From Nemertoderma westbladi (taxonomy: Eukaryota > Animalia > Xenacoelomorpha): a stretch of DNA of 64,000 nucleotides. The notes under the pieces are model-generated. The model was not told where the DNA came from. It searched no databases and saw nothing but the letters and a program-made list of their open reading frames with translations. Where the stretch lies: the NCBI GenBank assembly GCA_032718475.1, contig JAUCBJ010007832.1, positions 3,715-67,714 of the forward strand, in the 5' to 3' direction. How positions within the stretch are numbered: position 1 is the stretch's first letter; the number at the start of each line of letters is the position of its first letter. Below, in pieces: positions 4,101 to 58,162 of this stretch. Made by a program: the position numbers and the translations under genes.

Positions 4101-7100
4101 CTGAGTATCGTGCCTAAAGGGTTAGTTTGCCCTTAGTTTTGGTATTTTTATGTTAACAAAAGGATATAGAGTTGAACTTGTTGTTTGTATACTATTCCAT
4201 GAACCCCGATGTTTTTCCTTCTATCATGATAAAATCATGATAAAAGACAAATATCAGATATATATATATAAAGATAAAGATAAAATCATGATATTCCTAT
4301 TAAATGATAAAATAAAATTAGGTGTTATTAAACTTGTTCATTTTTAAATTATTCATTTTGTAAGTTGTTAAATTTAAAATATATATAAATTTAATTTCTA
4401 ATTTGTTGTGGTTAAAAAGTAACCCCAATTGATGCGAACAGGCCGTGTTCATCAGAGCCGGGAAGTAAAGTTAACCCACCTGATCCGAACAGTAGGCCAC
4501 AAGTCGGGACGCGATCTTATACTGGTCTTCTTCGTTGAGTTCCTTTTTATACCACGCGATGGCGTTCGATCTCGCGGCCAAAAAGGAAATGAACGTTGAT
4601 TCACTGAGAGTCCCCTGAAGAACTCCTGCTCCATGCGTCGCGTCACCCGGACAATGATGAAACTTTACCGGCAATGATATAGCCTTTGCTGTACAATAAT
4701 AACAGTTTGTAATTATTCATGTTTTTAATATTGTTATGATACATAATTTATGTCTCCCTTTTTATATCTCATTATGCTTCATATTTTTCCAATTATTTCG
4801 CGCTGTATCGAGTGTAAGTGTCCAAATTTAATAAGCAAGTAATATAGCAGCTAATTTGTATTAAGTTATTTTTATTCTTAAATTGTTACTTTTTGCTCGA
4901 ATATACCCCAAAATCGGGAGAAAATGTAACCAGGATTGCATTGATTTTACTTTTTTTTCCCTGCGAAAAAAATAATATATTTTTGATGTATTTATTTAAA
5001 TTTTATTACATGTGTTGAAAGAGCATCGACGTAGAAAAGGTTTGCAAGTAATTTGAGCAAAATTCATGCATTGGTCTATTAATATTGGTTTACGTAGTTA
5101 AGCGGCTCTCAAGTTACGTAATAAATATTCGAGAATACTAAATAAATTATTTGACATTGAGTGAAGCAGCATCAGGAGTTGAAGATTACAGTAATTTGAA
5201 TCGCAGTAACTATGGTAGCAAATAGCAATGTAGTAAAAAAACTACAGTTCCATTTATTTTGTAACACTATATCGCTCAATCATTTATTATAGCAATGAGC
5301 AACAAAGAAGTACCAACACCAAATTTATGAATAAAATTACATATTACATGAGGAAAAAACGTATTACTTTTTTTCAATATTCTCTCTATTAACCTCGCTC
5401 GGTAAATAAAATGCCTCGAGAAAAGTTATTCTTTTTTCCCCATGTAATAAATTATTATTACCGGTATCTAATTTATTTAATATATTCGGGAACACTCAAA
5501 CCCTCCACCCTCAAACCTCAAACCCTTTTCTTTTTACGAAAAATAACGAAGCACTTATTGATTTGGGCAGTTATAAAAAAAATTGTTTTGGGCAGTTATA
5601 AATATTGTGATTGTTTAAAATAATAATAATATTAATATGTATTTATTCCAAAATTATAACATTACTCAACGCCGTTAGTATTAACAGCGAGTTGTTATTT
5701 AGTACTTGCAACTATTGAGGACATTACAGCATTGTATTGGCCTGTACATTTAGTATTGTATTTGGTGTTATCCGTTAAGTAATGTCCCCTTAGTGGACAT
5801 TATTTAACGCCGTCATTGGTTACCACGTAAACAATAGGTGAAAATTTGCCTGACAGCCAGATAGGCCAACTTCATTACCTACCGGTAGGCGGGGTATAGC
5901 TATTAATAACCAGTTGGGCTTAGCTAGATATTATTATAACATGGCTCTACACGCCACCATAAATATAAGCTAACTTATTTATAACATAATTTATGTCATT
6001 TTTAAATTTATTTATACAGCAACTAATTTAATTATAAATTAAATATAATATAATAAATTATTAATTAAAAGTTATTTACGGGTCCTTAACCCTTTAGCTT
6101 GTGCTGTAATAACTAATTACTGTACTCGTGTGTAAAGTAGCTCTTTACAGTTGTAAAAGCTTTTGCGTAATTAGCCGGTTATTTTCCCCGTAAAGTACTC
6201 TGTAGTTGGTTTACCAGGCATAAAAGGGCCGTGTCCTTACTGTACTGGTGTTTTAGAGGACATAAAAGTAATTTCTTCTGTATGTATACTTTAGAGGACA
6301 TAATCCGCAATTTCGTGACGCAATAAGCTGGATCCTCTTGAAAACAGTGTCACTACCATGACGACGGCTAACAGCTGATATTGCCACGTCGAACATTTCT
6401 TTGTTCTTTGTTCTCTCTTTGTTCGGTCGACCAATCAGAGCGTTTTTTGACTCTGTGTTGGAGGTTGGATACAGAAACTCAGTAATTCAGTGTATATGTT
6501 TTTGCCCAGAGCCTAAGAACACCGGCTTTTGGCACCTCCGTGTTTCAGTCTTTAGCTTAACATTAGTAGGCTTAATTATAGAACGTATATCTGTTATCTA
6601 AACATATCATGCATATCTTACTTAACATTACTGCTTTTGCTGTCGGTTATTCATTATATTTGTTGATGGAAGATTATATTTGGAATACTGATCAATAGTC
6701 AGACACCCCAATCTTCTTGATATACTAAAGGTTAGAGAGACCGGTTACATATAAACGATTGCGACTTATGTTAAGTGGTGTGAAGTGAATCTAATGCTAT
6801 TTTATAGGCCCTACATGTATTGTCTGTTATTCTCTTTGTATGTGACTAAAATTAGTGAAGGTCGGCAGATTGGTGTGCAGCATTGTGCAGCATTGTGTAT
6901 GATTGTGACTGATAACAAAGCATCTCCTAAAGAATGCGCCATATACGTGAATCTATAGCCATCTCATTGCGTCTGGTTTAAGTCATAACTCTGTTTACAT
7001 ATTTAGAGCGCCACGTCCTAAAGGAACTGTTAATATTTCCCGAAAGTGAATAATATTTGTCAGAAATTATATATTGCGATCAGTCGAATAATACAGTAGG

Positions 7101-10100
7101 CTTACACCATCAATCATTAAGCTTCCAAATTCAGTCTCCCGGGTATATCCAGCGGGTGAATGATTGCGCATAGACTGGCTTCGGCTAATGTAGTGTATCA
7201 AATACTCGTCATAGGCTAAAGACTATCTATCATCTAAAAGACATCCTAATTTGGCAGGTTAAACTGTCAAAGGTCTTAAAAGCGCAAACAATAACAGATA
7301 TTGCTTCTGGATTGCGGCGTAAGCAATCAAGTCGAAAGTACCGGTCGACCGGAAACCTGTAGGCCTGACTGCCTGATCACCCGAACCGGTACTTACAGTA
7401 TAGGTACAGCAGTATTATTCGATTTTGATAATTATATACCGGTAGGCCTTAATAATTAATCAGGGACTGCAGCCCTGGTTTTTTATTGAGATTTTACTTA
7501 TTTCTGTCAAGTTTTATTTGTTTGTAGGCCAGTATTGAGCAGAAGGCGTGTAAGCCTGCTCAGATTGTACAGATAATTTGTAGGCTTGACTGTTGTCTTA
7601 CTGTGTTAAGTCTGAACGGATTGCAGTGTGTGTAGAGCATCTGTCCGATAAAGTGCTAGTTAGGAAAGTAGGGGCTTCAAGTGCTGTGAGGTAAACCCCC
7701 GTGAAAGAATAAGTCGTAGTACTGGGTTAGAACGCATACTAACTAATCATTTCGGAGTCTGCATATACTGTAGTTTATTTAGGCTTGATAGTAGTCTGCC
7801 AGCGTTTGGTCTGTACTTTGTTTGTGTAGTCTGTACGGGTAGCGTATAATTTTATTTAGATAATTTGTAGGCTGGATAGTTGTCTGACTGTTGTTGGGTT
7901 TGAGGAAATTTCAGTGTGTGTAGAGCATCTGTCCGATAAAGTGCTAGTTGGGAACGTAGGGGCTTCAAGTGCTGTGAGGTAAACCCCCTGTGAAAGAATA
8001 AGTCGTACTACTAGGTTAGAACGCATACTAACTAACCATTTCGGAGTCTGCACATACCGTAGTTTGTTTAGGCCTGATAGTAGTCTGTCAGTATTTAGTC
8101 GGCATTTGTTTGAGTAATTTGTACGCGTAGCGTAATATTTATTATTCAGAGTGTATGCGATTATTCGCAACATTCATTCCCCAAGTTTATTCCTACAGTA
8201 ATTGTGTTTGTTATACATACCGTTATAGTTAAACTAACCCCGGTACTACATCAGGGCTGCTCGGCGTAGGTAAAGACTGGAGATTTTGTGCTTTGGTCAC
8301 TCCGGCAGATACCGTGGTTCTTTTAGCTGTTCAAGTATTTTTAACTACTGATTATTTGTTGTACAAGTACTTGTACCTAATTTAGGGTTTAGTGTACAGT
8401 GCTTTCCGAAAGCAATTAGTGTGTAGGCAGTATATTTGTGTTGTAAAGTGGTTAATAGGCACGTTGGTTCTGGTAGACCGCGGTAATTAATCTCTAGGTA
8501 GGAACACTCCGTGATACATAACGTAGTACCTATAGCGATACGGTTATAGGTTGTCAGGCGGTGGTATTTTCCTATCTGGACAACGCAGTATATTTACTAC
8601 TACTTATTATTTTCAAATACCGTAGTAACCTGTCCGTTGTAATAACCAGATATTCTAACCCTTTGTTAGGCTGGTTAGTAGACTTCTTGTAAAATTACCC
8701 CAAAAATTCGTATTTGTGTATTTGTAATTAAATTTTTGTGTTTATTTAGAGATTGTAATCTCAACCCGAATTGTACGTAATTTGTAGTATTAAGTAACTT
8801 AGGTAAATTAGAATTATTTGTTTTAGTGTCTAACAAGTAGCACTCCACTGAGAGCGTACAGGTTATGTGTAGTGACTCCCCCAGAAATAATAACATTTAT
8901 TTCAAATATTGACAAAACCCATTAAACGGGTATATATATATTATAAATCAACTCAAACGATTTATAAATAGTAGGCCTGCCATACAACAATTAGGTCTCA
9001 ATCACAGTTGGACTACTGCTTAAATAACGGTAATAAAGTAAGTTAAAGTAACCAAGTAACCCTTAAAATTCAGAAATTCAATTATTCTAAAATAATTGGT
9101 ATACCGGTATTTACAATAGGCTTATTATATTTATTTCTATAAATTTTAGGCTGAAATCATACCGGTATTCTGTAATTAATTCTAGTCTGTAATTATACTT
9201 ATATATATACATTATAAGTGTAAGCTGTATACCGGTATTCACGATAGGCCTATTATATATATATAAATTTAGGCTGAAATCATACCGGTATTCTGTAATT
9301 AATTCTAGTTACTAATAATACTTATATATACTATAAGCATACCGGTATTCTAATATTATATATATATCACGCTACACTGAGTAGCAGTATCGGTAATTAA
9401 TTACTAGGCTAGCAGTTAATGCTGAATTACTAGACTTGCTTAGACTGTAATATAGCAGTAGGCATTCAACTGTACAATCAAACATGTCTGACACAAAACA
9501 AACATTGTCAGATAGCCTCTTAGAAAGTGCTAGAATGAGTGTTAGACAGGGTCTTAAAAAGATCTGGGACTCAGCTAAGAGTATAGAGCGTCTGAGACCA
9601 AAGTCCAAGTCCCCTCCTACTGTAAGCAAGGTCATCCCTACAGTAGTAATATCAGAACCTAGGCTGGTCCAACATCGTAGGTCTATCATAGGCACTCGAG
9701 CTCAGGTCAAGCGGGACCAAGAAGCAGCGGAACAGCAACAACCCACGAGCCAAGAATTTATTCCTCAGCGGCCCGACAGCTCCAGTAGTGAGGATACTGT
9801 AGAGCTGACACCCGAGCGCGGAGCAAAGATGACGGATGCGGTTTATTCGGATCCCCTTCTCATCCTTCCTGCAGCCGTACTCACTAGGATATTGATCGCG
9901 GTGGAAGAACACCAGATCGATTGGGCGAGAAGTCAGCGATCAACTAAAGATAGTTATGCGGGATACACATGGGAAGAACTGAAGTCTATTGTCGAGTCGC
10001 AATGGAACTTCCCCGGACCCGGACTCCCGTTTGATTTATCAGAAGCTGCCTGGGAAGATATACACAGGATGGGAGTAACCAAGGAAACCGTCGATCCAGC

Positions 10101-13100
10101 TGTGTGGAAGAGGTCCGCAGCCGGATACGTACAGGGATTCTTCAGCTCCATGGAGCGATTAGAAAAACAACTGTTTCAACAACCCCAAGGACCTCAAGAG
10201 CAGGGACAGCTGCTTTATCAAGTTAGAGAAAGAATTTTACGAATCAGGCTAATCTTATTGGCCTTTGAGGAGGCTTCTAAAAGAAGACAAGACACGTCGT
10301 TGCAAGTTGCCGTAAAGACTTGGTTTCAACAGGTGAGCCTCCAGGTGCAAGGAACGACTCAGTGGAAAGCCCAACTGGATGAGCGCTCAACCCATGGAGA
10401 ATCAACAGACGCTACTTTTTCCCAAGTGGAAAGTGAAGCGATGGCAGAGAAGCCGCATAAGAGGGATGCCATTGACATCTATCTGTCGGACTATCAACGT
10501 TTTGTAGGAGATGAAGAGTTGAGGAGAAGACTAGAGGGGCTTAGCCCTAATAGTGAAGGAGCCCAGCGTGTGTTGGACGCAATCGATGTGGATAGGTTAG
10601 CTGCGAACCAAGCTAAATTCAATGAAAGCATCCGCATCGCTAAGGTTCAAGAAGAACAAGTAAAGAAAAAACGTATAGAAGATAGAAAGACAGCAGCAGC
10701 GGCAGGGGCAGCGGCAGAAGCGGAAAGAAAAATAGCAGTGGCAGAAGCAGAACGGAGGGCATCTGAAGAGACAACCCAACTAGAGTTGGAAAATCTTCAA
10801 GAGAAGCAAGACAACTTCAGTAAACAGTTAACAGCTAGTAATATGCAGATGATGAATCGATCTACTCCCAAAAGACAGGGATATACATCATCTGAGGAAG
10901 GCGATACCACCGATACTGAAGGCAAAGGAAATAGATCTCGTCTAAGCAGACGTAAAAGAACATCCCACCGTCAGAAATTGCCTGATTTGCCTCCAGCTGT
11001 TAGAAGGCAACTAAATAACACCAACTTAGGTAGTACAGAACCCACAGACCAAATAATTACAATAGAAAGACTCCCTACTATAGTAGATGAGCCTGAAATA
11101 ATTAGGCCTGTTCTTGAAATCACCCCTTCGGTGATAGAGACACCTGTGCTCCCTGAACCTACCTCTAAATTCCCTCTGCACAGCACCAAGCTACCTGTGC
11201 CCAGCAGAACAGCCCATGAGACAGTTCATGTCCTGGACTCCGAGCGAAATATTCATGATTTGTCGCCCGTTGTCCCTCGTCCGCCCGCTACAACGTTGGC
11301 GACTCCCGCTTCGGCGGTCGAATGGGTGGATGAGAGACGACGGGGGATGGATCTCCTGCTCGGGCAAATGCAGGAGACCGTTCAGCAATTCAAGGGCACA
11401 GTGAGGGAAAGTAGGTTAGAGTTGCAAGAAGTGCAGCAAAGTATCGCATTAGAACGCGATAAATTAGTAAATACACAAAAGGGTATACCACCACCCTCGG
11501 TAACGATGTGTCAACCTGTTAGGTCTGAAGTATCTCATGCGCAAGGTGTGGAGCCTACACGCATCTATACTGCTAGCGAAGTAGAAACTCCTATAGTGAA
11601 CCCTATTAAGGGTGATTATAGACCTGTTGATAATGATATTCCCTATAGACCTGATCATAATCCGAGAAATTTATATACCGATAACTCGATATTAAATAAC
11701 ACGATGGCCCAAGAAAGTTTTACGCGTCAAATGGCTAGAACCGAAGCCCGGCAAGCGGTAAAGGTGGGAGAGATAGTCAAGTTCAATGGAGATGAGATGA
11801 AATGGTTACCTTTTAATGAATATTATAAAGATAACATACAGAACTCTGTACTATCTAATGGAGAGAAACTTAGATTCCTCATCGAGTGCTTGGAAGGATC
11901 TCCCAAGTTAATGGCGTTAAAGTTTATTGGACATCCAGACGGATTAAGACAAGTTTGGGATACACTAAACATCAGGTATGGTAATAGGAATAACATAGCT
12001 AGGTATTTGTATGCAAAATTAATGGTGCCCCGAAAGTTTCTTAGCAGTGGGATTATAGAGTTTTCCGATGAGATTCAGGAGATCTGTAGACAATTAGATT
12101 GGCTAGGTAAGTCTCATGAATACCAGAATTCTATGGTTGTAGGAGCCTTAGCATCTACTTTGCCCAAGGGTGGAGTAGGTACACGCTGGGACAAGAAAGT
12201 GTTATATATGATGGAACAACAACGACGAGACCCTACCATGGCTGATCTCATGTCATTCTTAGATGGGGAAGTGAAATTACAGCTCCTAAGGCAGTCCAGA
12301 GAGAAGACACCGGAAAACAAGGTAAGTGAGAAACCAGTTTCTAGGAGAAGGGTAATACCAGTTTGTTATACAGACGACGGCGAAAGCCAGGCTTCTCAAG
12401 AGGAAGACAGCGGAAAAGACACTGAAAGATCTTACTATGACAATAAAATCCTAAAGGACGTAAGTAAATTCAAGTCTCGAACCAATGACAGGAGAGAACA
12501 GGTAAGAAAAACTCCTCCTACGTCTCCTAAGAGAATTCATGTAAGAAATCCCGAGGAAAGAACGAACGTGCACCACACAGCACATGTTAAAGTAAGTAAC
12601 GTCAAGCCCAAATGTGTGCTGTGCGACGGGCCCCACCGTTTAAATGCGTGTGATGAATTCCTGAGGAAATCACTAAAGGATAGACGTGAAGTCATGTGGG
12701 ATAAGCGGTTGTGTTATAATTGCCTCAGACGAGGACACCAACGGCGAACCTGTTACTCCGACGCAAGGTGTGCAAAGTGCGGTGCGAAACATCATATCTT
12801 GTTGCACACTGAATTCGAGCGAAATAGTCCGAGTCAGGTGAGTGATTCCGAACTACATGTCCAATTCAGTGATGTGAACGACACTGATCAATCTGAGATG
12901 GAAGGATTCTATACGGACGAGTTCTCCGACGAAAACGAATCCTGTTACATGATAAATACCGCAGTGTATCGAGCACTCACTTATGAAAAAGATACAGAAA
13001 GTGACCTCACTCTAACTACTTCTGATCGACAACCATCTTGGAAAGCGCCAACTTCCAATGTAGGGATTAGAGAATTTCCTGTGGTACGGATAAGGGTCCA

Positions 13101-16100
13101 CGGACCAAAAAGGAGTTATGTAGTGAACGCCCTCCTTGACTCCGGTAGTACAGGAACATTCATCGACAAAGAGCTAGCCGAAGACATATTTGCTGGACAA
13201 CCCAAGTTCCGAACTAAGCTAAACATGTCAGGAATTATGCAGGTTTGGAAATCTACAGTAACAGCGGATTATTATGTAGGTGTGTTGTCCACCCCCCAGG
13301 ACGAACTAGGAGAACATAGCATAAGGTCAGTGAAAATGGTGGCAATAAAGAACTTCGCTACCACCCAAGTGGAACCTTATAACTGGGATGAGGACGATTT
13401 CACCCAGCAGTTTGAAATACCTAGATTCAACACCGATTACCCTGGAGTCCAAATACTCATCGGTCAAAATGCGCATGAAGCGCTCGAGACATTGGAGAAA
13501 CGGCCTGCTCAACCGCAACCTCTACAAGTTTATGCGGGAAGAACTTGAGTAGGTTGGTACTTTACTGGCCCTTCTCGTAGAACTCTTATGGAAAGATTAC
13601 CAAAAGAACAGGTATATCAATTAAGTGAACGGGAAGTGGAGAGCAGTGAAGTTGATGACCCAACTGAGGGAACACCATACTCCTCAGGTAATGACGATAT
13701 CAACTCCAATGTAGATCAATGGAGACATTGCCCCGAGACGATCAATCTAGCCGACATCGCTTCCAGAGGAGCAACTCCTCAAGAACTTACAGATACTCCA
13801 GACCGGTTAGGTGGACCCGACTTCCTAAGTAAAGAAGATGAATGGCCTCCTCATCTTACCCCGGTGAAGATTAGACAGGCCAAGGGAGCGGAGAAAGTAA
13901 CACAACCACTCAATCGCCCAGCTGGTCGTTTATGTTTACCGGAAAGAGACCGAAAACTGTCCGGAAACTATGGAAGGCAAGATACTCTTCCCACGACCAC
14001 CTCCCTAATCCAACAAATATCTAGGGACTCCATAACGAACAACATACGGAGTGGGTGTGTGACTATATTATTTTATATTTATTTTTATTATTTTATATTA
14101 TGTATGTATTATTATGTAATTTTATTATAATCGTTTTATTTAATTTTATTTAGTAGAATGTTATTTTAGCGATTATTTAGTAGGTTGGTGCAATATATAT
14201 TCGTGTTTATTATTTAATTACTTACATATTATATATTTAGTGCGACGGCGAGAAATAATTCTTTTTCTCTTTCCTTACTGCCCGTATTACATTACGAATA
14301 CGTAACTACAGTAAGATGAAATGTCCGTACTTATTAAAGTACAATAAAGCCACTACTATATTCAAGTATTATTGGTAGGCAGAGTATTAGGAATGCAAAG
14401 TTCAGATCCTCGTGTCTCGGCTAAACCAAGCTCTGGGTAGACCTTGGAAACGACTTGCCTCTTCACACTGACATTGCTTCGTGCGATATTGCTCTCATAC
14501 CGTATATTAAATAATACATATAGTAGCGTGATGTCCCTTTTAACAGTAGCGTAAAACGCAAAAATAAATCTGTTAAACCCTTTGACCATCTGCAATTCTA
14601 GTCGATTAAGATATCGCGGCACCCACCGATATACTTGAAAGACAAAATTCTAGAATCAGTGGTTAACATCCCCAGACGAGTTCTGGAATAAACTGGTGCC
14701 CATCCTAAATATTAATTATTAATATTTACAAAATCTGTCAAATATCAGATCCTTTAAAATTCTAGTCGATTAAGATATCGTAGCACTTACCGATACTCTT
14801 AAAAGGACAAAATTCCTAGAATCAAGGATCCAAGTCCCCAGACACGTTCTGGAATAAAATTGTGTCTATTTAACATTAAATAATAAAATTTACGGGAATA
14901 AATTTAAATTCATATATTTCAATGAATTTAATAAATTGTCATTTTGTACAATTTATAACATTCCCAAAATTCCATTAATTAATAGATCATGGGAGCGGAG
15001 ATTCACTCTATTAAGTGTATCAGTGTGCGAGAACCTCCAATATATAGTCAATAGCCGATAAAATTCATAAAATCATATATAGAGAGGATATTGACAATTA
15101 AAGAATTACTATTAAATAGCATCCCAGATCTGTATGCATGAGAATTACCCTAATTCTACCGCTAGCTTTCCATAATGTCACCATGGCAACAACCACGCTA
15201 GAATTAGAAGTGAGTTAAAAGAACAATAAAGGGCTTGCGCATTGAATAGCATACGGAATAAATAGCACACCGCTAGTATCCAAGGATACATAATAACAAC
15301 GTGACATTCTGGAAGGCACTTGACTAACGGACAAATGACCCGAATGTGTGATAGAATGTGTACCATTTGTGACAGTTACGTGGGATTTGTGCGTTTGTAG
15401 GTGAATGTTACTACTAAGGTGTGTTTACAGTAGCGAGTCGCAATTGTGAAAGTAGCCCTAACTCTCCAGTAAGAACCTGAAGTATATCTAAGCCTTTGGG
15501 ACAGACGGTGGAGTGACTTGTGCTGGTTGTTGTAGTCGTTGTGCAGCTACGACGTTGGCGATAGGCACATCGACGAAAGTACACCAGCGCTGAGGATCTC
15601 GCACTGTCCGGGGGCAGAGAGGGGTAGGCAGCGACGCCCGCTAGCCTAAATATAAACTCATTATAATATTGATAAACTCATATAGCAGATATGACTAAGT
15701 TGATAGAAGATGATCTTGGTATCAGGGAGCGATATACTCTACCTTTACAAGCGTTTGTTGATAGCTTGATACGCGGCGACGCTGGTCCAACTACTACGGA
15801 GGACGATGGTCGTTATATCTAACCGCCAATGTCCCGGAAGCAACTTGCGCGTGGGTTGGACTGTAGAAAATTCACCGCTCGCTATACGCATTGTAATGGT
15901 ACGTATATGGACTTCTTAACTGCTGGTCATCCTATCGACCTACACAATACGAACGATATAGACACCAAAAGGGAAACGGTTTTATTTAAATATCATACCC
16001 AGCGGAAGCGGAACGATAAACTGAGACTCGAACACGAAAATTCTATTCTAAACCGACTCGAAAGTGCAGATGTTGAAGAGCCGGATAAACGCAGCGACTT

Positions 16101-19100
16101 CACCAAATACCTGGAACTCTTGAGAGAAACCTATCTCGATATTACCAGTCAACAGAATCTAGAAACTCGATATCCTCAAGGTATACATCATGACCGCATG
16201 GTAGAACTCAAACGGCTCTATTCCACTATGATGTATCTTACCGCCGATCGACCGCTACCTGTTGTACCGGATAGCTTCGAACAGATGGGGGAATATTGTA
16301 AGCTGGAGAAAGATCACTCGCGTTTCCCCTACAAGACGTGCGTTTTTGGTATTATTGAGATGAATGTCCAAGACCCAACCAACAAACGGAAAGACATAAA
16401 CATCCGCGGAGACGTTGCTTTAAACACGGTTTTACTCGCTATATTTACGGGAGTTTCGAGCGAAACTTGTTCGATGTATCACCTGCGCTCGTTCGACTCA
16501 GACGATCCTTAAATAAACCAATGATCAGAGTTTCGGAATGCTCGATTGGAACTCCTCATTCCCTGGTGGGACTTCAGACTCTTGATCCTATTGGTGTGAC
16601 GGATCCTCCCGAGCTGTGCTCGCTGCTCGAAGATCTGGTGTTGCCTGAGCAGTTAGTCGGTGGCACCCCGGTTGTGGGCTTCCTGGATATTAGCCCATTC
16701 TGCCTGGCCGGATTGGGACGCGGACATTTGATGTCGCCGTTTAGCCCTTGCCATCGTCCCGGCTTAACACGATATAACCTGTCACCAAAGTGGCGGAGAA
16801 CGTTGTACCAAACGAGTTAAACGCTATTCTACAAAGATCAGAAAGGAAACCTGCGTTTGTTCAGATAAACGTAAGTTGTAACAGCAAGAACTTAGACAAG
16901 GGTTGTCTAAGTTCGATATCTTCTTAGAGATTCTGGATTTCACAATCGAACTGAGATAAAGACAATTCGTTTATCGCATGGATAAACGAATTGTCTTTAT
17001 CTCAGTTCGATTGTGAAATCCAGAATCTCTAAGAAGATATCGAACTTAGACAACCCCATTCTCTGCGAGAGTTTTTGGATGAACGTATCCAGCTACGAGC
17101 GGAGGAAAATCAGCTCGAGGAGAAGCATATCGAAACGGCGGATACCCCGACCATAATCCTACACCTTCTGATGCAATCATATTGCACCCTTCATCCAGGA
17201 TTGATAGCCCTCCTAGTAAAGTGGCTCGCTCCAAAGAGAAAAGGACTCTTGCTAGCCTCAAAAAACTGCGTAAACGCCGTCTGCGTAAGAAAGACTAACT
17301 GTTTAGAGTATCTTTATATTTTAGAAACTGTGATTTGTTATATTTTATAGACTTAAATCCCATTTTCTGGGAGCGGTGTAAAAGCTTTTGCGTAATTAGC
17401 CGGTTATTTTCCCCGTAAAGTACTCTGTAGTTGGTTTACCAGGCATAAAAGGGCCGTGTCCTTACTGTACTGGTGTTTTAGAGGACATAAAAGTCATTTC
17501 TTCTGTATGTGTACTTTAGAGGACATAATCCGCAATTTCGTGACGCAATAAGCTGGATCCTCTTGAAAACAGTGTCGCTACCATGACGACGGCTAACAGC
17601 TGATATTGCCACGTCGAACATTTCTTTGTTCTTTGTTCTCTCTTTGTTCGGTCGACCAATCAGAGCGTTTTTTGACTCTGTGTTGGAGGTTGGATACAGA
17701 AACTCAGTAATTCAGTGTATATGTTTTTGCCCAGAGCCTAAGAACACCGGCTTTTGGCACCTCCGTGTTTCAGTCTTTAGCTTAACATTAGTAGGCTTAA
17801 TTATAGAACGTATATCTGTTATCTAAACATATCATGCATATCTTACTTAACATTACTGCTTTTGCTGTCGGTTATTCATTATATTTGTTGATGGAAGATT
17901 ATATTTGGAATACTGATCAATAGTCAGACACCCCAATCTTCTTGATATACTAAAGGTTAGAGAGACCGGTTACATATAAACGATTGCGACTTATGTTAAG
18001 TGGTGTGAAGTGAATCTAATGCTATTTTATAGGCCCTACATGTATTGTCTGTTATTCTCTTTGTATGTGACTAAAATTAGTGAAGGTCGGCAGATTGGTG
18101 TGCAGCATTGTGCAGCATTGTGTATGATTGTGACTGATAACAAAGCATCTCCTAAAGAATGCGCCATATACGTGAATCTATAGCCATCTCATTGCGTCTG
18201 GTTTAAGTCATAACTCTGTTTACATATTTAGAGCGCCACGTCCTAAAGGAACTGTTAATATTTCCCGAAAGTGAATAATATTTGTCAGAGATTATATATT
18301 GCGATCAGTCGAATAATACAGTAGGCTTACACCATCAATCATTAAGCTTCCGAATTCAGTCTCCCGGGTATATCCAGCGGGTGAATGATTGCGCATAGAC
18401 TGGCTTCGGCTAATGTAGTGTATCAAATACTCGTCATAGGCTAAAGACTATCTATCATCTAAAAGACATCCTAATTTGGCAGGTTAAACTGTCAAAGGTC
18501 TTAAAAGCGCAAACAACAGTGTTCTTGATCCTCGTGGCTTTATTTTCACTGACTCACTAACGTTCGTTCGTGTAACAAAGCCAATCGGATCATCACACTG
18601 TAAAGAGCTACTTTACACACAAGTATGTAATTAGTTATTACAGCACAAGCTAAAGGGTTAAGGACCCGTAAATAACTTTGAGTTGAGATGCTGTCAATAT
18701 ATCAAGGTGCTGTAAGTTAAGATGCTGTCGGAGGTTTGGTGGTTTGGCGAATTATTGGAAATACTGTAGTGGTTCCCTATTCCCCACGCGCGTCCCTCGT
18801 GTAATAGTATTTGATGCGTAACATATTGTTGCGTACATACTGCTAGCTTGCTGAATTAGGGAAGTACATGTTATCATAATAAATATGGCCATTTTTTTTT
18901 GTGTAGTATCTGCAACCATATTAGTAAATGTCATAACGAATATGTAATTATTTGGGCTTCAAATAGTCATTCATTCAGATGATTAATTTGGCGTTGTTAT
19001 GGTAATACTATTTATTATAGTTTCGCTATTAATAATTAATAAATTAAGTTTTCTTGCCAGGGAATTCTTCGTTTTGGTTTGTTTTAATTCTGTGGGTACA

Positions 19101-38860: not shown

Positions 38861-40240
38861 ATTGTTGCTTGTTGTTGCTCATTGTTGCTCGTTGTTGCTC
38901 ATTGTTGCTCATTGTTGCTCATTTTTGCTCGTTGTTGCTCAAGGTTGTTGTTCGTTGTTGCTCATTGTTGCTCGTTGTTGATCGTTGTTGCTCATTGCTG
39001 TACGTTGATGATCGTTGTTGCTCATTGTTGCTCATTGTTGCTCATTGTTGCTCGTTGTTGCTCATTGTTGCTTGTTGTTGTTCATTGTTGCTCGTTGTTG
39101 TTCATTGTTGCTCGTTCTTGCTCATCGTTGCACGTTGTTGATCGTTGTTGCTCATTGTTGCTCGTTGTTGCTCATTGTTGCTCGTTGTTGCTCATTGTTG
39201 CTAGTTGTTGCAAATTGTTGTTCATTGTTGCTCGTTGTGTCTCATTGTTTGTCGTTGTTGCTCATTTTGCTAATTGTTGATCGTTGTTGCTTATTGTGGC
39301 TCATTGTTGTTCGTTGTGTCTCATTGTTTGTTGTTGTTGCTCATTTTGATAATTATTGATCGTTATTGCTCATTGTCGCCATTGTTGGTCGTTGTTGCTC
39401 ATTGTTGCTTCTTGTTGCTCGTTGTTGTTCATTGTTGCTCGTTGTTGCTCATTGATGCACGTTGTTGATCGTTGTTGCTCATTGTTGCTCGTTGTTGCTC
39501 ATTGTTGCTTGTTGTTGCTCATTGTTGCTCGTTGTTGCTCATTGTTGCTTGTTGTTGCTCGTTGTTGCTCGTTGTTGTTCATTGTTGCTCGTTCTGGCTC
39601 ATTGTTGCTCATTGTTGCTCATTGTTGCTCGTTGTTGCTCAAGGTTGTTGTTCGTTGTTGCTCGTTGTTGATCGTTGTTGCTCATTGTTGCTCATTGTTG
39701 CTTGTTGTTGCTCATTGTTGCTCGTTGTAGCGCATTGTTGCTCGTTGTTGCACATTGTTGTTCATTGTTGCTCATTGTTGCTCGTTGTTGCTCGTTGTTG
39801 ATCGTTGTTGCTCATTGTTGCACGTTGTTGCACGTTGTTGATCGTTGTTGCTCATTGTTGCTCGTTGTTGCTCATTGTTGCTTGTTGTTGCTCATTGTTG
39901 CTCGTTGTTGCTCACTGTTGCTTGTTGTTGCTCGTTGTTGCTCGTTGTTGTTCATTGTTGCTCGTTCTTGCTCATTGTTGCTCATTGTTGCTAATTTTTG
40001 CTCGTTGTTGCTCAAGGTTGTTGTTCGTTGTTGCTCATTGTTGCTCGTTGTTGATCGTTGTTGATCGTTGTTGCTCATTGCTGTACGTTCTTAATCGTTG
40101 TTGCTCATTGTTGCTCATTTTTGCTCGTTGTTGCTCGTTGTTGCTCGTTGTTGTTCATTGTTTCTCGTTCTTGCTCATTGTTGCTCATTGCTGCTCATTT
40201 TTGCTCGTTGTTGCTCAAAGTTGTTGTTCATTGTTGCTCG
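38861..40240. repeat. 10-bp (RTTGTTGCTC)n satellite, left part, split by LTR element 2
   Basis: Direct reading; continues at 52345-53213. Confidence 0.95.
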
Positions 40241-41499
40241 TGTAAAAGCTTCTGTGGGATATAACTGGCCCTTTTGCTTCGCAATCCAGTTTCCCCCCAG
40301 GCGCTGGAATACTCTAAAAAAGGTTCTCTAATTGTATATATATTCCCCTCGCCCGCAAGGTACCGTTACAGGTGTTTTAACGGACATAAAAGTCATTCTG
40401 CTATATACGTGTTTTAGCGGACATGGTAAGGCAAAAACCTGCAATGCACCAAATACCTTTCACAGCTTAGCCGTGATGATTCATATTACGACATCTAACA
40501 GCTGGTTGCTGACATGGAAACAGCCATTGGACGCAGGGTTCTTTGTTGGCTTGAGCCAATCAGAGCGATTTTTCCTGTCGACGTGTAGCTTTTCGGCCGA
40601 TCATAAGGAGAGTGTTCAGTCTTACTGTTTTTTCTTGTTACTTTATTGTTGTTGCTATCTAGGCCAGTAACAACGGCTCTAGAGTCAATTCATTTCATAC
40701 TTTAGAAGAAACATTAGTAGGCTCAAGATTATAGAGCGTATAACTGTTATCGGTTCATAACAACTCACATATCGGTCCATATCAGTACATTGTCATATCA
40801 TATCTTAACCTACCGTCTTAATAGTTTGCTGTTGTTTGGTTGAATATTATTTGGAGAACATTTATAAAGAACCCAAATTTCCCAATTTTCTTGATACACT
40901 ACAGGTTAGAGAGACGGGTTATATATAGCGATTGCGACTTATATTATTGTGGTTTGTAGTGAATTTAATGCTATTTGATAAGCACTACATGAATCCGTTG
41001 CTGTTCTCTTTATATATGATAAAATTCATTGACGGTCGGCAAATTAGTGAGCAGTATTGTGTGTTACCGGTAGTGTGCATGATTGTGACTGATAACTAAG
41101 CATTTCCTAAAGAATGCGCCTCATACGTGAATCATAAGCCTTACCGACTTACCGTTGTGATTAGTATAAGTCATATCTCGGTTTACTTAGATAGAGCGCC
41201 ACGTCCTAAAGGAACTGTTAATATTTCCCGAAAGTAAATAATATTAGTCAGAAATTAATTATTAACGATCAATCGAATAATACAGTACAGTAAGCTTACA
41301 CTGCAATAATAATCTAAGCCCTCAGAATCCAGTCTCCCGGGAATATCCAGTGGGTGAATGGACGCGCACTAGGCTGGCTTCTGCTAATGTTGTGTTTATT
41401 GGTATTAAATATTTGTCATCTTCTAAAGTATATTTATAAACCAAAAGACATATAAATTTTGGCAGGTTAAACTGCTAAAGGTCTTCAAAAGCGCGTACA
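40241..41499 (+). repeat. 5' LTR of element 2
   Basis: Direct repeat of 51086-52344; I saw only about 2 substitutions by eye. Confidence 0.95.
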
Positions 41500-41510
41500 A
41501 TAACAGTTAT
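41500..41510 (+). promoter_or_regulatory. Non-tRNA primer-binding site ATAACAGTTAT, complementary to LTR 40740-40750
   Basis: Abuts the LTR end; exact reverse complement of ATAACTGTTAT in its own LTR. Confidence 0.75.
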
Positions 41511-43762
41511 TGACTTTATTGCAGTAAGCAATAAAGTTGAAAGTACCGGTCAACCGGTAAACCTGAACCGGTACTTCTGTAGGTCAGTAGGCCCAACTGC
41601 CAGAACCGGTACTGCTGTAGGTCCGTAGGTCCAACTGCCAGAACCGGTACTTCTGTAGGTCCGTAGGCCCAACTGTCCTAACCGGTACTTCCAGTATAAG
41701 TACATTAGTATTATTCGATTTTGATTATTGTATACCGGTAGGTCTTAGTATTTAATCAGGGACGGCCGCCCTGGTTTTTATTGAGATTTTACTTATTTCT
41801 GTCGGTTTTATTTACATGTAAGTTAATATTGAGCTGAAGACGTGTAAGTCTGCTCAGATTGTTCAGATAATTGTAGGCCGGACTGTTGTCAGATTGTTGT
41901 TGGGTTTGGAGAGATTACGGCGTGTGTGGAGTTTGTCCGATAGAGTGCCAGTTAGTAAGTTGGGGCAGCCATTGCTGTAAGGTCAATCCCCTCTTAAAGA
42001 ATAAGTCGTACTACCGTGTTAGAACGCATACTAACTAACAATTTTGGAATCTGCACATACTGTAGTTTATTTAGGCTTGACAGTATTCTGCCAGCGCTTT
42101 GGCCTGTGTTTGTTTGTGTGGTCTGTTCAGGTACCGTAATAGTTATTACTCAGATATTTTGTAGGCTGGATTGTTGTCTAGCTATTATTAGGTCTGAAGA
42201 GATTGCTGCTTGTGTAGAGTTTGTCTGATAAAGTGCCAGTTAGTAAGTTGGGGCAGTCATAACTGTAAGGTCAATCCCCTCTTAAAGAATAAGTCGTACT
42301 ACCGTGTTAGAATGCATACTAACTAACCGTTTTGGAATCTGCACATACAGTAGTTTATTTAGGCTTGGTGGTAGTCTGCCAGCGTTTGGTTTGTATTTTG
42401 TTTGAGTATTCTGTACGGGTAGCGTAATATTTATTATTCAGAGTTTATGCGATTATTCGCAACATTCATGTCCCCAAGTTTATTCCTACAGTAATTGTGC
42501 TTGTTACACATACCGTTATAGTTAAATTAACCCCGGTACTACACGGGCTGCTTGGCGTAGGACAAGACTGGTGATTTTGTGCACCGGTCACTCCAGCAGA
42601 TGCCGTGGTTCTTTTAACTGTTCAAGTATATTTAACTACTGATTATTTGTTGTACCAGTATTGTACCTAATTTAGGGTTTAGTGTACAGTGCTTTCCGAA
42701 GTAATTAGTGTGTAGGCAGTATATTTGTGTTGTAAAGTGGTTAATAGGCACGCTGGATCTGGTAGTCCGCGGTAATTAACTTCTAGGTAGGAACACTCCG
42801 TGATACATAACGTAGTACCTATAGCGATACGGTTATAGGTCGTCAGGCGGTGGTATTTTCCTATCTGGACAACGCAGTGTATTTACTACTACTTATTATT
42901 TTCAAATACCGTAGTACCCTGTCCGTTGTAATAACCAGAATTCTAACCCTTTGTTAGACTGGTTTGTAGACTTCCTGTAAAATTACCCTAAAAATTCGTA
43001 CGTAATATTTTGTTGTGTTTAATTAGAGATTTAATCTCACCCGTATCGTAAGTAATTTGTAGTATTAAGTAACTTAGGTAAATTAGAATTATCTGTTTTA
43101 GTGTCCCATAAATAGCACTTCACTGAGAGCGCACAGCTTCTGTGTAGTGACCCCCCAGAAATAATAACATTTATTTCAAATATTGACAAAACCCTTTTAA
43201 ACGGGTATATATATATTATAAATCAACTCAAACGATTTATAAATAGTAGGCCTGCCATACAACAACTAGGTCTCAAAATCAGTTGGACTACTGCTTAAAT
43301 AACGGTAACAAAGTAAGTTAAAGTAACCAAGTAACCCTAAAATATTCAGAAATTCAATTATTCTAAAAATAATTGACATACCGGTATTTACCATAGGCTT
43401 ATTATATTTATTTCTATAAATTTGAGCTGAAATCATACTGGTATTCTGTAATTAATTCTAGTTCATAATTATACTTATATATACTATAAGTGTAAGCTGC
43501 ATACCGGTATTCACGATAGGCCTATTATATATTTATATATATTTGTGCTAAAATTATATACCGGTACTCTGTGACAAATCTAGTCTGTAATAATACTTAT
43601 ATATATACTATAAGCATACCGGTATTCTAATATATTATATATATATCACGCTACACTGAGTAGCAGTATCGGTAATTAATTGTTAGGCTAACAGTGATAC
43701 TGAATTACTAGACTTACTTTAACTGTATTTATAGCCGTAGGCATTCAACTGTGTAAACAAAC

Positions 43763-46700
43763 ATGTCAGACGCAACCCAATCACTGTCAGATAGTCTCTT
43801 AGAAAGTGTTAGAATGAGTATTAGACTTAGACAGCGTATTAAAAGGATCTGTGACCAAGATAAAAGTATAGAACATCCCAGATCCAAGTCTAAGTCACCT
43901 ACTATTGTAAAAAAGGCCATCCCTACAGTAGTAGTGTCAGACCCTAGGCTAGTAGAACAACGTAGGTCTATCATCAGCACTCGGGCCCAAGTCAAGCGGG
44001 ATCAAGAAGCAGCTGTCAAACCGCAGCAACATCCTAGCCAAGAACCTAGTTCTCAGCGGCCCGATAGCTCCGGTGGTTCGGATACTGCTGAGCGGACACC
44101 CGAACGCGGAGCGAAGATGGCGGATACGGTTTATGATGAGCGGCCAACCTATGAAGAATCAACCGACGCCACTTCTTCTCAAGTGGAAAGCGAAGTGGAA
44201 AGCGAAGTGGAAAGCGAATTAACAGCAGCAGAGAAGCCGCAAACTAGAGATGCCATTGACATCTATCTGTCAGACTATCAGCGATTCCTAGGAGACGAAG
44301 AGTTGAGGAGACGACTGTCTGGACTTCGCCCTAATAGTGAAGGAACCAAGCTTGTGTTGGACGCAATCGATGCGGAAATGTTAGCTGCAGAACAAGCTAA
44401 ATTTGATGAAAAACTCCGCCTCGTTAGAGTCCAAGAAGAACAAATAAAGAAAAAACAGATAGAGGACCGAAAGGCAGCAGCAGTAAAGGCGGCAGAAGCA
44501 GAAGCAGCAAAGGCGGCGGCAGAAGTAGAAGCAGAAAGAAAGGCAGCGGAAGTAGAAGCAAAAGGAAAGGCAGCGGTAGCAGAAGCAGAAAGAAAGGCGG
44601 CAGCGGCAATGGCAAAGGCAGTGGCAGAAGCAGAACGGAGAGCGTCTGAGGAGACTACCCAACTGGAGTTGGAAAATCTGCAAGAGACGCAAGACTACAT
44701 AAATAAAAAGCTAACTGCTAGTCGAATGCAGATGATGAGACGATCTACTCCAAAACGCCAGGGATACACGTCATCGGAGGAAAGCGAAACCACCGATCCT
44801 GAAGGCGGAAGAAATAGATCTCGTCTAAGCAGGCGTAGAAAAACATCTCACCGTCATAAACTGCCTGATTTGCCCCCAGCTGTCAGAAGACAACTAGCTA
44901 GCACAGACTTAGGTAGTACAGGACCCACAGACCAAATTATTCAGGTCACAAGACTCCCTACAATAGTTGATGAGCCTGAAATAATTAGGCCTGTCGTTCC
45001 CAAAGCCACTCCTGTGCTAGAGACCCCTGTACTTCCAGAGCTTAACTCTAAATTCCCTCTACACAGTACTACACTGTCTGTACCCGGTAGAACAGTCCAT
45101 GAGAATATCCCTGTCCTGGAAGCTGAGAGAGAAATCAAAGATTTGTCTCCCGTCGTCCCGCGTCAGCCCGCTACAATGTTGGCGACTCCCGCTTCGGCGG
45201 TTGAGTGGGTAGAGGAGGGACGACGGGGGATGAATCTCCTGCTCGGACAGATGCAGGAGACTGTCCACCAATTTAAGGGAACAGTAAGGGAAGGTAGGGC
45301 CGAATTGCAAGAAGTGCAGCAAAGTATCGCGCTAGAACGCGACAAATTAGTCAACATACCAAAGGGTATACCCATACCCCCTGTAACATTGTGTCAACCT
45401 GTTAGGTCTGAAGTATTACATGCGCAAGGTGTGGAGCCTACACGCATCTATACTGCTAGTGAAGTAGAAACCCCTATAGCAAACCCTATTAAGGGTGATT
45501 ATAGACCTGTTGTTAATGATGTTCCCTATAGACCTGATAATGATCCGAGAAATTTATATACCGATAATTCGATATTAAATAACACGATGGCCCAAGAAAG
45601 CTTTACGCGTCAGATGGCTAGAACAGAAGCCCGCCAAGCGGTCAAAGTGGGAGAGATCGTTAAATTCAATGGAGATGAGATGAAATGGCTACCTTTCAAT
45701 GAATATTACAAAGATAGCATACAAAACTCTGTACTATCTAACGGAGAGAAACTTAGGTTCCTCATCAAGTGCTTGGAAGGACCTCCCAGGTTAATGGCGT
45801 TAAAGTTTATTGGACATCCAGATGGATTAAGACAAGTTTGGGATACATTAAACATCAGGTATGGTAACAAAGATAACATAGCTAAGTATTTGTATGCAAA
45901 ATTAGTAGCCCCCCGACACTTCCTTAGTAGCGGGATTATAGAGTTTTCCGATGAAATTCAGGAAATCTGTAGACAATTGGACTGGTTAGGTAAGTCTCAT
46001 GAATATCAGAGTTCCATGGTTATTGGAGCAGTAGTCTCTACTTTACCCAAGGGTGGAGTATGTACACGTTGGGACAAGAAAGTGTTGTACATGAATGAAC
46101 AACAACGACGAAGCCCTACCATGACTGATCTCATGTCCTTCTTAGATGGTGAAGTAAAACTACAACTCATCAAGCAGTCCAGAGAGAAAACATCGGAAAA
46201 TAAGGTAAGTGAGAAACCTGCTTCTAGGAGAAGAGTAACACCGGTGTGTTACACTGACGACGGCGAAAGCCAAGCTTCTCAAGAAGAAGACAGCGGGAAA
46301 GACACAGCAAAATCTTACTATGACAACAAGACCTATAAAGACGTAAGTAAATACAAGTCTCGAATCAGTGACAGGAGAGAACAGGTAACAACAACTCCTC
46401 CTACGTCTCCTAAGAGAATGCACGGAAAAAAGCCCGAAGAAAGAACGAGAGTGCATAACGTTACCCAAGGTAAGGTGAGTGATATCAAACCAAAATGTGC
46501 GCTGTGCGACAGGCCCCACCGTTTGAGTGCGTGTGCTGAATTTCTAAAGAAATCCCCTGTAGACAGACGTACAGTCCTGTGGAATAAGCGGTTATGCTAT
46601 AATTGCCTCAGATCAGGACACCAACGGCGAACCTGTTACTCCGACGTAAAGTGTGCAAAGTGTGGCGCGAAACATCACATCTTGTTACACAGTGAGTTCG

Positions 46701-47929
46701 AACGAGACAACCCGAGTCAGGTAAGTGAGCCCGAACTACATGTCCAATTCAGTGATGTAAATGACACTGATCAAGAGTCTGAGATGGAAGGATTCTATAC
46801 TGACGAATTCTCCGACGCCAACGAATCCTGTTATCTAATCAATACCGCAGTGTATCGAGCACTTACTTACGAAAAGGACACCGACAATGAGTTCCCCCCA
46901 ACTACCTTTGACAGACAACCATCTTGGAAAGCTCCAACTTCCAACGTAGGAATCAGAAAATTTCCTGTAGTGCAGGTAAGAGTTCACGGTCCTAACAAAA
47001 GTTACATAGTGAACGCCCTCCTTGACTCCGGCAGCACAGGAACATTCATCGATCAAGAACTAGCCGAAGATATCTTTGCTGGACAACCCAAATTCCGGAC
47101 TAAATTGAATATGTCAGGAATTATGCAGGTTTGGAAATCTACCCTAACGGCAGATTACTATGTAGGTGTGTTGTCCACCCCCCAGGATAAATTAGGAGCA
47201 CAAGGTATAAGGTCGGTAAAAATGGTGGCTATAAAGAACTTCGCTACTACCCAAGCAGACCTTTATAATTGGGACGAGGATGAGAGCATCCAACATCTTA
47301 AGATACCTCGATTCCAGACAGATTATCCTGGAGTGCAAATACTCATCGGCCAAAACGCGCATGAGGCGCTCGAGACATTGGAGAAACGGCCTGCTCAACC
47401 GCAGCCACTGCAAACCTATGCGGTAAGAACTAGAGTAGGTTGGTACTTCACTGGCCCTTCCCGTAGAACTCTCAAAGAGAGATTACCTCAACAACAGGTA
47501 TACCAAGTAAAGGAATGGGAAGTGGAGAGCAGTGATGTGGACGATCCAACTGAGGGAACACCATACTCCTCAGATAATGACGATATTAACTCCAATGTAG
47601 ATCAATGGAGACATTGCCTTGGGACGATTAATCCAGCCGACATCGCTTCCAGAGGAGCAACTCCTCAAGAACTGATAGATACTCCAGGCTGGTTAGGTGG
47701 ATCCGACTTCTTAAGTAAAGAAGAAGAAGAATGGCCTCCTCATCTTACCCCGGCGGAGATTAGACAGGCCAAGGGAGCGGAGAAAATAATACAACAACTC
47801 AATCCCCCAGCTGGTCGTTTATGTTTACTGGAAAGAGACCGAAAACTGTCCGGAAACTATGGAAGGCAAGATACTCTTCCTACGACCACTTCCCTAATCC
47901 GACAAATATCTAGGGACTCCATAACGTAA
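43763..47929 (+). CDS. BEL/Pao Gag-protease polyprotein (copy 2), intact ORF of 1388 aa with vestigial RNase H and integrase tails
   Basis: DUF1759-like Gag, three zinc knuckles, LLDSGS protease, then QWRHCLGTINPADIASRG..W.GGSDFL (end of Pao RNase H) and PAGRLCLLE (integrase C-terminal tail-like). Confidence 0.9.
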   Translation: MSDATQSLSDSLLESVRMSIRLRQRIKRICDQDKSIEHPRSKSKSPTIVKKAIPTVVVSDPRLVEQRRSIISTRAQVKRDQEAAVKPQQHPSQEPSSQRPDSSGGSDTAERTPERGAKMADTVYDERPTYEESTDATSSQVESEVESEVESELTAAEKPQTRDAIDIYLSDYQRFLGDEELRRRLSGLRPNSEGTKLVLDAIDAEMLAAEQAKFDEKLRLVRVQEEQIKKKQIEDRKAAAVKAAEAEAAKAAAEVEAERKAAEVEAKGKAAVAEAERKAAAAMAKAVAEAERRASEETTQLELENLQETQDYINKKLTASRMQMMRRSTPKRQGYTSSEESETTDPEGGRNRSRLSRRRKTSHRHKLPDLPPAVRRQLASTDLGSTGPTDQIIQVTRLPTIVDEPEIIRPVVPKATPVLETPVLPELNSKFPLHSTTLSVPGRTVHENIPVLEAEREIKDLSPVVPRQPATMLATPASAVEWVEEGRRGMNLLLGQMQETVHQFKGTVREGRAELQEVQQSIALERDKLVNIPKGIPIPPVTLCQPVRSEVLHAQGVEPTRIYTASEVETPIANPIKGDYRPVVNDVPYRPDNDPRNLYTDNSILNNTMAQESFTRQMARTEARQAVKVGEIVKFNGDEMKWLPFNEYYKDSIQNSVLSNGEKLRFLIKCLEGPPRLMALKFIGHPDGLRQVWDTLNIRYGNKDNIAKYLYAKLVAPRHFLSSGIIEFSDEIQEICRQLDWLGKSHEYQSSMVIGAVVSTLPKGGVCTRWDKKVLYMNEQQRRSPTMTDLMSFLDGEVKLQLIKQSREKTSENKVSEKPASRRRVTPVCYTDDGESQASQEEDSGKDTAKSYYDNKTYKDVSKYKSRISDRREQVTTTPPTSPKRMHGKKPEERTRVHNVTQGKVSDIKPKCALCDRPHRLSACAEFLKKSPVDRRTVLWNKRLCYNCLRSGHQRRTCYSDVKCAKCGAKHHILLHSEFERDNPSQVSEPELHVQFSDVNDTDQESEMEGFYTDEFSDANESCYLINTAVYRALTYEKDTDNEFPPTTFDRQPSWKAPTSNVGIRKFPVVQVRVHGPNKSYIVNALLDSGSTGTFIDQELAEDIFAGQPKFRTKLNMSGIMQVWKSTLTADYYVGVLSTPQDKLGAQGIRSVKMVAIKNFATTQADLYNWDEDESIQHLKIPRFQTDYPGVQILIGQNAHEALETLEKRPAQPQPLQTYAVRTRVGWYFTGPSRRTLKERLPQQQVYQVKEWEVESSDVDDPTEGTPYSSDNDDINSNVDQWRHCLGTINPADIASRGATPQELIDTPGWLGGSDFLSKEEEEWPPHLTPAEIRQAKGAEKIIQQLNPPAGRLCLLERDRKLSGNYGRQDTLPTTTSLIRQISRDSIT

Positions 47930-51007: not shown

Positions 51008-51085
51008 CTGTTTAGAGTATTTACGTATATTAGAAACTGTGATTTTGTATATTTTATAGACTCAAATCCCATTTTCTGGGAGCGG

Positions 51086-57340: not shown

Positions 57341-58162
57341 AATATAGACATTGGCAGACTGGTTACACTCCTTCAAATGGAAATTCCATTGGCTGATTGG
57401 CGCGGCGCTCTTCAAAAATAAATTGTTTCAATGCAGCAATGTGCGGCGCACTTAAAAATTTCGTCGCCGCGGGGTTTGCTTCTAAATTGCATTGACGAGC
57501 GGCGCGCATAAAAATTGGGCGGCGCGCTATCCGGCGCACTTTTTGGATGGATTCCATACAGGGCGTGGGTGGACCCAGTTTCGGCTTATGTCGATTCACC
57601 TTGCGGTTGAAACCGCCAGGTTGTCCCGTATCCACTGTAAACTGCCAAAAGTGATTTTTTTTTTTTTTTTTGTTATATTCCCCAGTAAGTAAGTTGGCAA
57701 AATATTATGTATATTAATTTACTTTCAGTTTCCAGTTTTTATTGTTGTTGCTTTCAACGTTTCAAGCTAGGTATATTTTCCCGTATTGTATATTCGTTTA
57801 TGTTTATCGTCCTGATGATGTTCGAGTTATAGTTTTGATATAGTTTATTTATTCCTGTTTTTGTATGTTTCGTGCTTTATTGGTATATTTGTGTTTGGTA
57901 TTATCTTTCTTTTGGACTCCGGTCAATAAAATATATATCTATCTAGACCACTGGCAGACTGGCAATGCTCCTTGGTAGGCCTGTCGCTACCGGTACGCCA
58001 GGTTTCTGAACTGAATCAGTGAATATTACATTAAACAGTTCAGCAGTTACAGGCCAGGTCTAAAATAATAAATTAAAATATAATTATTTTCTTACCAGTA
58101 TTCCGTACCAATCTGCCAGTACCAGAGTACTGCAGTACCGGTACATCCTGAATTACAGAATT

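Follow-up and report, generated by a model that had tools for sequence, protein, structure and literature searches.

Candidate tRNA-independent self-priming in two BEL/Pao retrotransposons of Nemertoderma westbladi

Two non-autonomous BEL/Pao elements and their primer-binding sites

The 64,000-nucleotide stretch of the Nemertoderma westbladi contig JAUCBJ010007832.1 analyzed here, which we call the window, carries two related retrotransposons with long terminal repeats (LTRs) that belong to the BEL/Pao superfamily. In both, the primer-binding site (PBS) directly after the 5' LTR is the exact reverse complement of an 11-nt segment within that LTR, which suggests that a fragment of the elements' own RNA serves as the primer for reverse transcription. 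All positions refer to the window, and all features of the elements lie on its forward strand.

Element 1 (6152-18515; target duplication ACAGT) has its 5' LTR, with TG...CA ends, at 6152-7290, the end being set by the second LTR copy at 17377-18515. Its polypurine tract lies at 17369-17376 and a frame for Gag (with DUF1759 and zinc knuckles) and protease at 9451-13548. A short pol remnant, the region of the NPAD motif, follows at 13702-13857 and matches only positions 1298-1350 of a profile of 20 full-length relatives. Element 2 (40241-52344; target duplication GCTCG) is of the same lineage and sits in a 10-bp satellite. Its LTRs occupy 40241-41499 and 51086-52344, its polypurine tract 51078-51085, and its Gag-protease frame, at 43757-47929, runs into the same short pol remnant (47588-47746). 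The LTR ends of both elements are fixed by the second LTR and the 5-bp target duplications; these duplications, the TG...CA ends and a polypurine tract shared by the two elements conform to BEL/Pao structure. DUF1759 exceeds the Pfam cut-off in the long frame of both, the profile of full-length relatives matches both Gag-protease frames (E 1e-61 and 9e-45), and both Peptidase_A17 and DUF5641 are present in the best full-length relatives. Neither element has the polyprotein of a Ty3/gypsy chromovirus; their Gag and their relatives are BEL/Pao.

Both elements are young, recently inserted, non-autonomous deletion derivatives of BEL/Pao. The two LTRs differ at 5 of 1139 positions in element 1 and at 2 of 1259 in element 2, while between the elements the internal regions are ~87% identical and the shared part of the LTR 79%. 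Against the profile, reverse transcriptase (RT) and integrase are absent from both and pol is reduced to a 53-position remnant, so the elements would have to be copied by the enzymes of a partner; as they are deletion derivatives, they cannot be placed by RT phylogeny. The family is large and diverse, with 11184, 2850, 170 and 120 records when contigs of four sequencing runs were aligned to 6100-7700. The libraries searched held no close protein relative (best ~24-40% identity), the exact LTR pattern had no match in metagenome contigs, and three scans of viral contigs gave no relative.

The 18-nt site complementary to a tRNA 3' end that is a criterion of BEL/Pao was not found after either 5' LTR, where the first 8 nt contain no TGG. 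A sequence-only reading of the window had already noted the lack of a TGG-type site, and had claimed that each PBS has its exact reverse complement in an 11-mer of the LTR which changes together with it. We confirmed both claims, and all of its coordinates for the 11-mers, the PBSs and an extension of the duplex proved correct on recheck. The PBS of element 1 (7291-7301) pairs with LTR positions 6587-6597 and that of element 2 (41500-41510) with 40740-40750, the two copies differing at one pair, U-A to A-U. As that reading also held, the duplex abuts the start of the minus strand: the match begins at the first base after the 5' LTR (offset 0) in both copies, and the end of the LTR 11-mer is the predicted 3' end of a self-primer.

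The PBS complement occurs once per LTR in each element. When the LTRs were dinucleotide-shuffled 5000 times, 7 of the shuffles contained the match in element 1 and 10 in element 2. Other internal 11-mers with an exact LTR complement numbered 1 of 10064 and 7 of 9564, respectively. Under a looser rule that admits offsets 0-4 and contiguous or spliced matches, the window matches were reached by 6/500 and 2/500 shuffles. A published in-silico definition of a self-primer calls for a stretch of 10 bp or more that is complementary to the LTR and begins 0-5 bp past the 5' LTR (available text of PMC6317226); both copies have 11 nt at offset 0. The 11-mer also closes a conserved island: positions 6560-6598 are identical at 36 of 39 sites between the copies, and the next 108 nt at 55. 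The paired segment ends on AT in both copies, and none of the 40 variants listed out of 379 in the sequencing-run contigs for 6100-7700 falls inside the 11-mer or the PBS.

Other features accompany the elements. Inverted repeats of 84 bp (6068-6151 and 18597-18679; 96% identity) flank element 1 and probably mark a small DNA transposon that it entered, and the 10-bp satellite split by element 2 comprises more than 200 units (38862-40241, 52345-53206). Also present in the leader are a 38-bp tandem array, which contains the palindrome ACCGGT, and a duplicated unit of 288 bp (41565-41691, 41863-42442, 7579-8096). Directly before the 3' LTR of element 2, a 349-aa Cys/His-rich frame (49958-51007), of which fragments remain in element 1 (15823-16820), may be an accessory gene; it has no Pfam match. 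Farther downstream lies an apparently intronless PRMT5 gene (58064-60049) with 52-61% identity to the listed homologues from many animal phyla.

Helices at the predicted start of the RNA

A second long-range helix, P0, which the sequence-only reading had missed, pairs 6547-6559 with 7212-7224 in the 3' part of the LTR of element 1, and 40697-40709 with 41419-41431 in element 2. P0 has 13 bp in both copies, and five of the 13 pairs have changed on both sides. Its mean pair probability is 0.97 in element 1 (fold from 6547) and 0.73 in element 2; duplex energies are -17.9 and -16.2 kcal/mol for the elements' own strands and only -4.4 and -5.6 when strands are swapped between the copies. In both elements P0 starts at an A following TTC, in an initiator-like context, and in element 1 we take TCAGTC at 6545-6550 to be an initiator-like transcription-start motif. 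We infer that this A (6547/40697) is the RNA start, +1, from which primer lengths of 51 and 54 nt would follow. P0 is followed by P1, a helix of 7 bp between 6560-6566 and 7185-7191 whose letters are identical in both copies. Upstream of the predicted start, the two U3 regions, though diverged elsewhere, both retain the box CCAATCAGAGCG (6428-6441, ~40555-40568).

P0 and the PBS helix cross, so the two would form either a pseudoknot or one after the other. Further conserved long-range helices between the 3' part of the LTR and the leader also cross the PBS helix (7084-7094:7412-7422 in element 1 and 41271-41283:41708-41720 in element 2; 7098-7107:7548-7557 and 41295-41301:41842-41848).

The presence of several conserved long-range helices in the 5' region would also suit a PBS pairing that was structural or regulatory, serving packaging, dimerisation or PBS protection, with some host RNA as the real primer; that the PBS of element 2 is a near-palindrome points the same way. 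We regard this explanation as improbable. The pairing starts exactly at the first base past the LTR, and the PBS differs between the copies, and wholly between families, yet tracks its own LTR. In addition, the element 1 PBS is not palindromic, and 6100-9500 contains no Rfam family of note (one weak snoRNA match, E 0.14). The non-palindromic PBS of element 1 also led us to reject a palindromic PBS as a mechanism in its own right.

The sequence-only reading had extended the PBS duplex beyond a 3x3 internal loop, pairing 6579-6583 with 7305-7309 in element 1 and 40731-40736 with 41514-41519 in element 2. The extension is in register in both copies and shows one A-U to G-C change (6583/7305 to 40736/41514) and two wobble swaps; taken alone, however, it is weak. 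Across ten families, one member each, extensions averaged -5.3 kcal/mol against -3.8 for cross pairings (p 0.018), which is only modestly better. In addition, some of its positions are shared with local hairpins immediately 3' of the PBS (7300-7306:7321-7327; 41513-41522:41528-41537).

BEL/Pao loci outside the window

Alignment-based scans fetched 100 BEL/Pao loci (79 + 21), of which the 15 with a fixed 5' LTR end were counted and 85 were excluded, among them L020, whose repeat lacks LTR-like bounds. The end was fixed by a second LTR copy in 12 loci, in L095 by its second copy together with the homologue L005 (probably one base short), and in L023 and L077 by close homologues. Matches were sought at offsets 0-4, either contiguous or spliced with a required donor and acceptor. 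Twenty-one of the loci (L080-L100) come from contigs filed as bacterial metagenome-assembled genomes and are probably host DNA in the bins.

None of the 15 loci carries TGG within the 8 nt that follow the LTR, nor does any of the 17 elements when the window pair is included. An own-LTR complement of 10-15 nt was found in 14 of the 15, across a canonical intron in 12 and contiguous in two, and for each of them no more than 3 of 500 shuffles attained its score. The PBS letters are wholly different between families, yet match the element's own LTR. Once the window pair is added, a complement of at least 10 nt is present in 16 of 17 elements (10 of 11 families), a length reached by none of 258 cross-family pairs. 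The earlier suggestion that the window lineage self-primes thus gains support from comparison, the own-LTR signature being present in nine of ten other BEL/Pao families and in 0/258 cross-family controls.

In the 12 spliced loci (L005, L095, L021, L023, L029, L024, L055, L076, L077, L080, L081 and L091) the PBS complement becomes continuous only when a GT..AG intron of 67-451 nt is removed from the LTR. The donors in the outside loci are GTAAGT, GTGAGT, GTAAGG, GTACGT or GTAAGC, and between L080 and L081 the exon end and the PBS change together. The contiguous matches are in L025 and L084; the sister relation of L025 to L091, a spliced locus (support 0.97), suggests that an intron was lost. 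In 11 loci the LTR ends had been guessed blind (offsets 0-1), which proved unreliable, and three of these were later fixed by a second copy or close homologue. A post hoc check of the remaining eight at offsets 0-4, which we did not count, gave an 11-nt spliced match with a GTAAGT donor in five (L003, L014, L015, L046 and L062; the output for L014 and L015 is identical) and nothing convincing in L040, L053 and L082.

The frequency of spliced primers raises the question of whether the window elements also build theirs by splicing. A block resembling a splice acceptor (AG, then GTTAG) at 6707-6730 is identical at 21 of 24 positions between the copies, and a permissive junction search finds in both an intron from a GT in the 11-mer (6593/40746) to the acceptor-like site (6730/40904), giving a 10-nt match at offset 1. 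The 138/159-nt stretch between these sites is poorly conserved, as an intron might be, and 12 of the 15 outside loci do use a spliced primer. We nevertheless consider this very improbable in the window: the donor would be GTTATC, unlike those of the outside loci, and the spliced match, besides being the shorter of the two, would have TA at its end instead of AC or AT. The two window copies share no conserved canonical donor to go with the acceptor-like block. A U12-type donor at the 11-mer was rejected by eye, as it is not retained in element 2.

The outside loci also bear on how a primer end would be produced. Of the 14 positive loci, 11 have a paired segment that ends on AC or AT, and in the other three it ends one base past AC. 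In 13 of the 15, the primer end is followed 0-93 nt downstream by AATAAA or ATTAAA, with no such signal upstream; in these loci a cut would therefore be needed. The sequence-only reading had left two routes open, cleavage of the folded 5' RNA or use of the same segment from the 3' LTR; the position of the poly(A) signal makes the first the better fit and the second less so.

In its explicit form the 3' route would require an R region of only ~51-54 nt, with the transcript ending at the 11-mer of the 3' LTR and pairing with the PBS after circularisation. The window itself offers some encouragement for this. In both copies ATTATA, which we read as a variant poly(A) hexamer, precedes the end of the 11-mer by 17 nt, AATAAA is absent from both LTRs, and conservation stops one base past the 11-mer. 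We still think it a poor prospect, given that a poly(A) tail, if left in place, would prevent priming, that U5 would amount to ~700 nt of LTR, and that the signal is downstream of the primer end in most outside loci.

Proposed priming mechanism and known systems

The feature is real. In our view the best explanation for it is that this BEL/Pao lineage primes itself independently of tRNA, by a variant of a known mechanism, although the superfamily is described as primed by tRNA. Judging from sequence comparison, the window elements very probably use a self-derived primer of some kind. We favor, with moderate confidence, Tf1-like self-priming by a ~51-54-nt 5' piece that would be cut from the element's own RNA and take the place of a tRNA.

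In this scheme transcription would begin at the initiator-like A (6547/40697). Positions +1 to +13 of the RNA would pair with the 3' part of the LTR (P0) and positions +41 to +51 (+44 to +54 in element 2) with the PBS, both pairings being suggested by covarying complementarity. By analogy with Tf1, the RNase H of an autonomous partner would act in trans and cut after 6597/40750, leaving a primer of 51-54 nt with its 3'-OH positioned at the LTR end. RT would then copy the LTR back to the cut, so that strong-stop DNA extended only that far, and jump to the 3' LTR copy, from which the primer segment would be recopied and restored in DNA. Such recopying would explain why the outside families with a spliced primer keep their LTR intron. 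Finally, plus-strand synthesis would copy the last 11 nt of the primer into a new PBS. The 11 PBS pairs are strictly Watson-Crick and the flanking helices tolerate G-U, as would be explained if the primer is copied into the plus strand.

The cut could be dispensed with if a separate short transcript of ~51-54 nt, made by promoter-proximal termination at any LTR or solo LTR, annealed in trans by way of both helices. A length of ~51-54 nt lies in the range of Pol II RNAs that have paused or ended prematurely, and P0 and the PBS helix, which cross within one molecule, form easily between two (duplex of the 5' piece ~-35 kcal/mol). The family is also large, with 11184 and 2850 contigs aligned in two runs. 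We hold this to be unlikely, as most outside primers need splicing and end on a fixed AC or AT, which may suit an enzymatic cut better.

Several observations weigh against self-priming by a cut 5' piece. The base-level comparison covers two family copies only, and the covariation inside the 11-mer is one event across them; were the primer copied into the plus strand, a single paired change would be one event, not two. Nested folding gives the primer helix a probability of 0.0, because P0 crosses it, and the energy penalty for imposing it is 5.8 and 7.5 kcal/mol. Only some outside loci have P0-like helices, of 8-9 bp, and the extension helix (-2.9 and -3.4 kcal/mol) is equalled or beaten by 9/14 and 5/14 cross-family pairings. 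Among the 11 joints listed for four sequencing runs there was no strand-switch joint, which would mark a copied primer, and the ATTATA hexamer keeps the 3'-end route open. As to the outside loci, the offset range and the splice rule were chosen after a first look at their matches, and the match in L088 is only 8 nt, reached by 42 of 500 shuffles. In a Gag-protease tree (FastTree, 85 rows) the window pair forms a long branch outside the 15 loci (local support 0.81), so these loci speak for the superfamily and not for the window clade.

A broader proposal, to which we give slightly less than an even chance, is that self-priming is the normal mode of starting in a large part of BEL/Pao. Most families would splice the primer from an LTR intron, and the window lineage would be splicing-free, its capped leader of 51-54 nt held by two covarying helices like a home-made tRNA and cut at the shared AC/AT end.

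If self-priming in these elements is borne out, tRNA-independent priming would extend to a third LTR superfamily, which would bear on a proposal, in the available text of PMC3601003, that hairpin priming preceded tRNA priming; BEL/Pao LTRs were not modelled in that text. The elements may also be freed from control by tRNA fragments, and it would be clear why PBS-based annotation finds no site in them. The reading predicts exact RNA ends, a start at 6547/40697 and a cut after 6597/40750.

Within BEL/Pao, Cer7 of C. elegans is reportedly proposed to supply its own, self-encoded tRNA-like primer. The International Committee on Taxonomy of Viruses (ICTV) describes Belpaoviridae as primed by a host tRNA through an 18-nt PBS for tRNA-Arg or tRNA-Gly, in agreement with the sequence-only reading, and calls BEL/Pao replication poorly understood (PMC8742986). 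Achilles, a BEL/Pao element, uses tRNA-Tyr (available text of PMC4580426). The window elements resemble Belpaoviridae in their TG...CA LTRs, polypurine tract, DUF1759 Gag and protease, and differ from the ICTV-described members and from Achilles in having no PBS of the tRNA-Arg, -Gly or -Tyr type. Searches of the main text of openly available papers found no description of self-priming in BEL/Pao: the main texts of PMC3118150, PMC554778 and PMC6238403 mention neither a PBS nor a tRNA, and the available portions of PMC4580426, PMC13524379 and PMC3286476 mention no self-priming BEL/Pao element.

Outside BEL/Pao, self-priming has been described for Tf1 and Tf2 of S. pombe, for Tj1 of S. japonicus and for the Tf1/sushi group; for plant Tcn1 (a Ty3/gypsy chromovirus) and TAR it has been predicted (PMC7175516, PMC4600332 and PMC6317226, as far as their available text goes). 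The TAR lineage of plant Ty1/copia elements (Houba, Osr-1) is comparable to the window elements in that self-priming was predicted by the same sequence definition outside the chromoviruses. TAR is a plant copia lineage, unlike the window elements, and neither a two-helix anchor nor a spliced primer is mentioned for it in the available part of PMC6317226. The closest likeness is to the Tf1/Tf2/Tj1 and Tf1/sushi elements: the window PBS complements 11 nt of the element's own 5' LTR RNA, and there is no tRNA site. In Tf1 the RNA's first 11 bases are paired with the PBS, and the RNase H cut falls between bases 11 and 12 (available text of PMC7175516), which bears out the earlier statement that Tf1 primes from an 11-nt segment of its own RNA. 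Unlike Tf1, the window elements are BEL/Pao, and for copies without RT the cut would come in trans. Whereas the Tf1 primer is the first 11 bases, the window 11-mer lies 40-43 nt inside the predicted RNA, whose 5' end would be anchored by a second covarying helix. The BEL/Pao setting and this added anchor helix are likely what is new here relative to self-priming of the Tf1 type.

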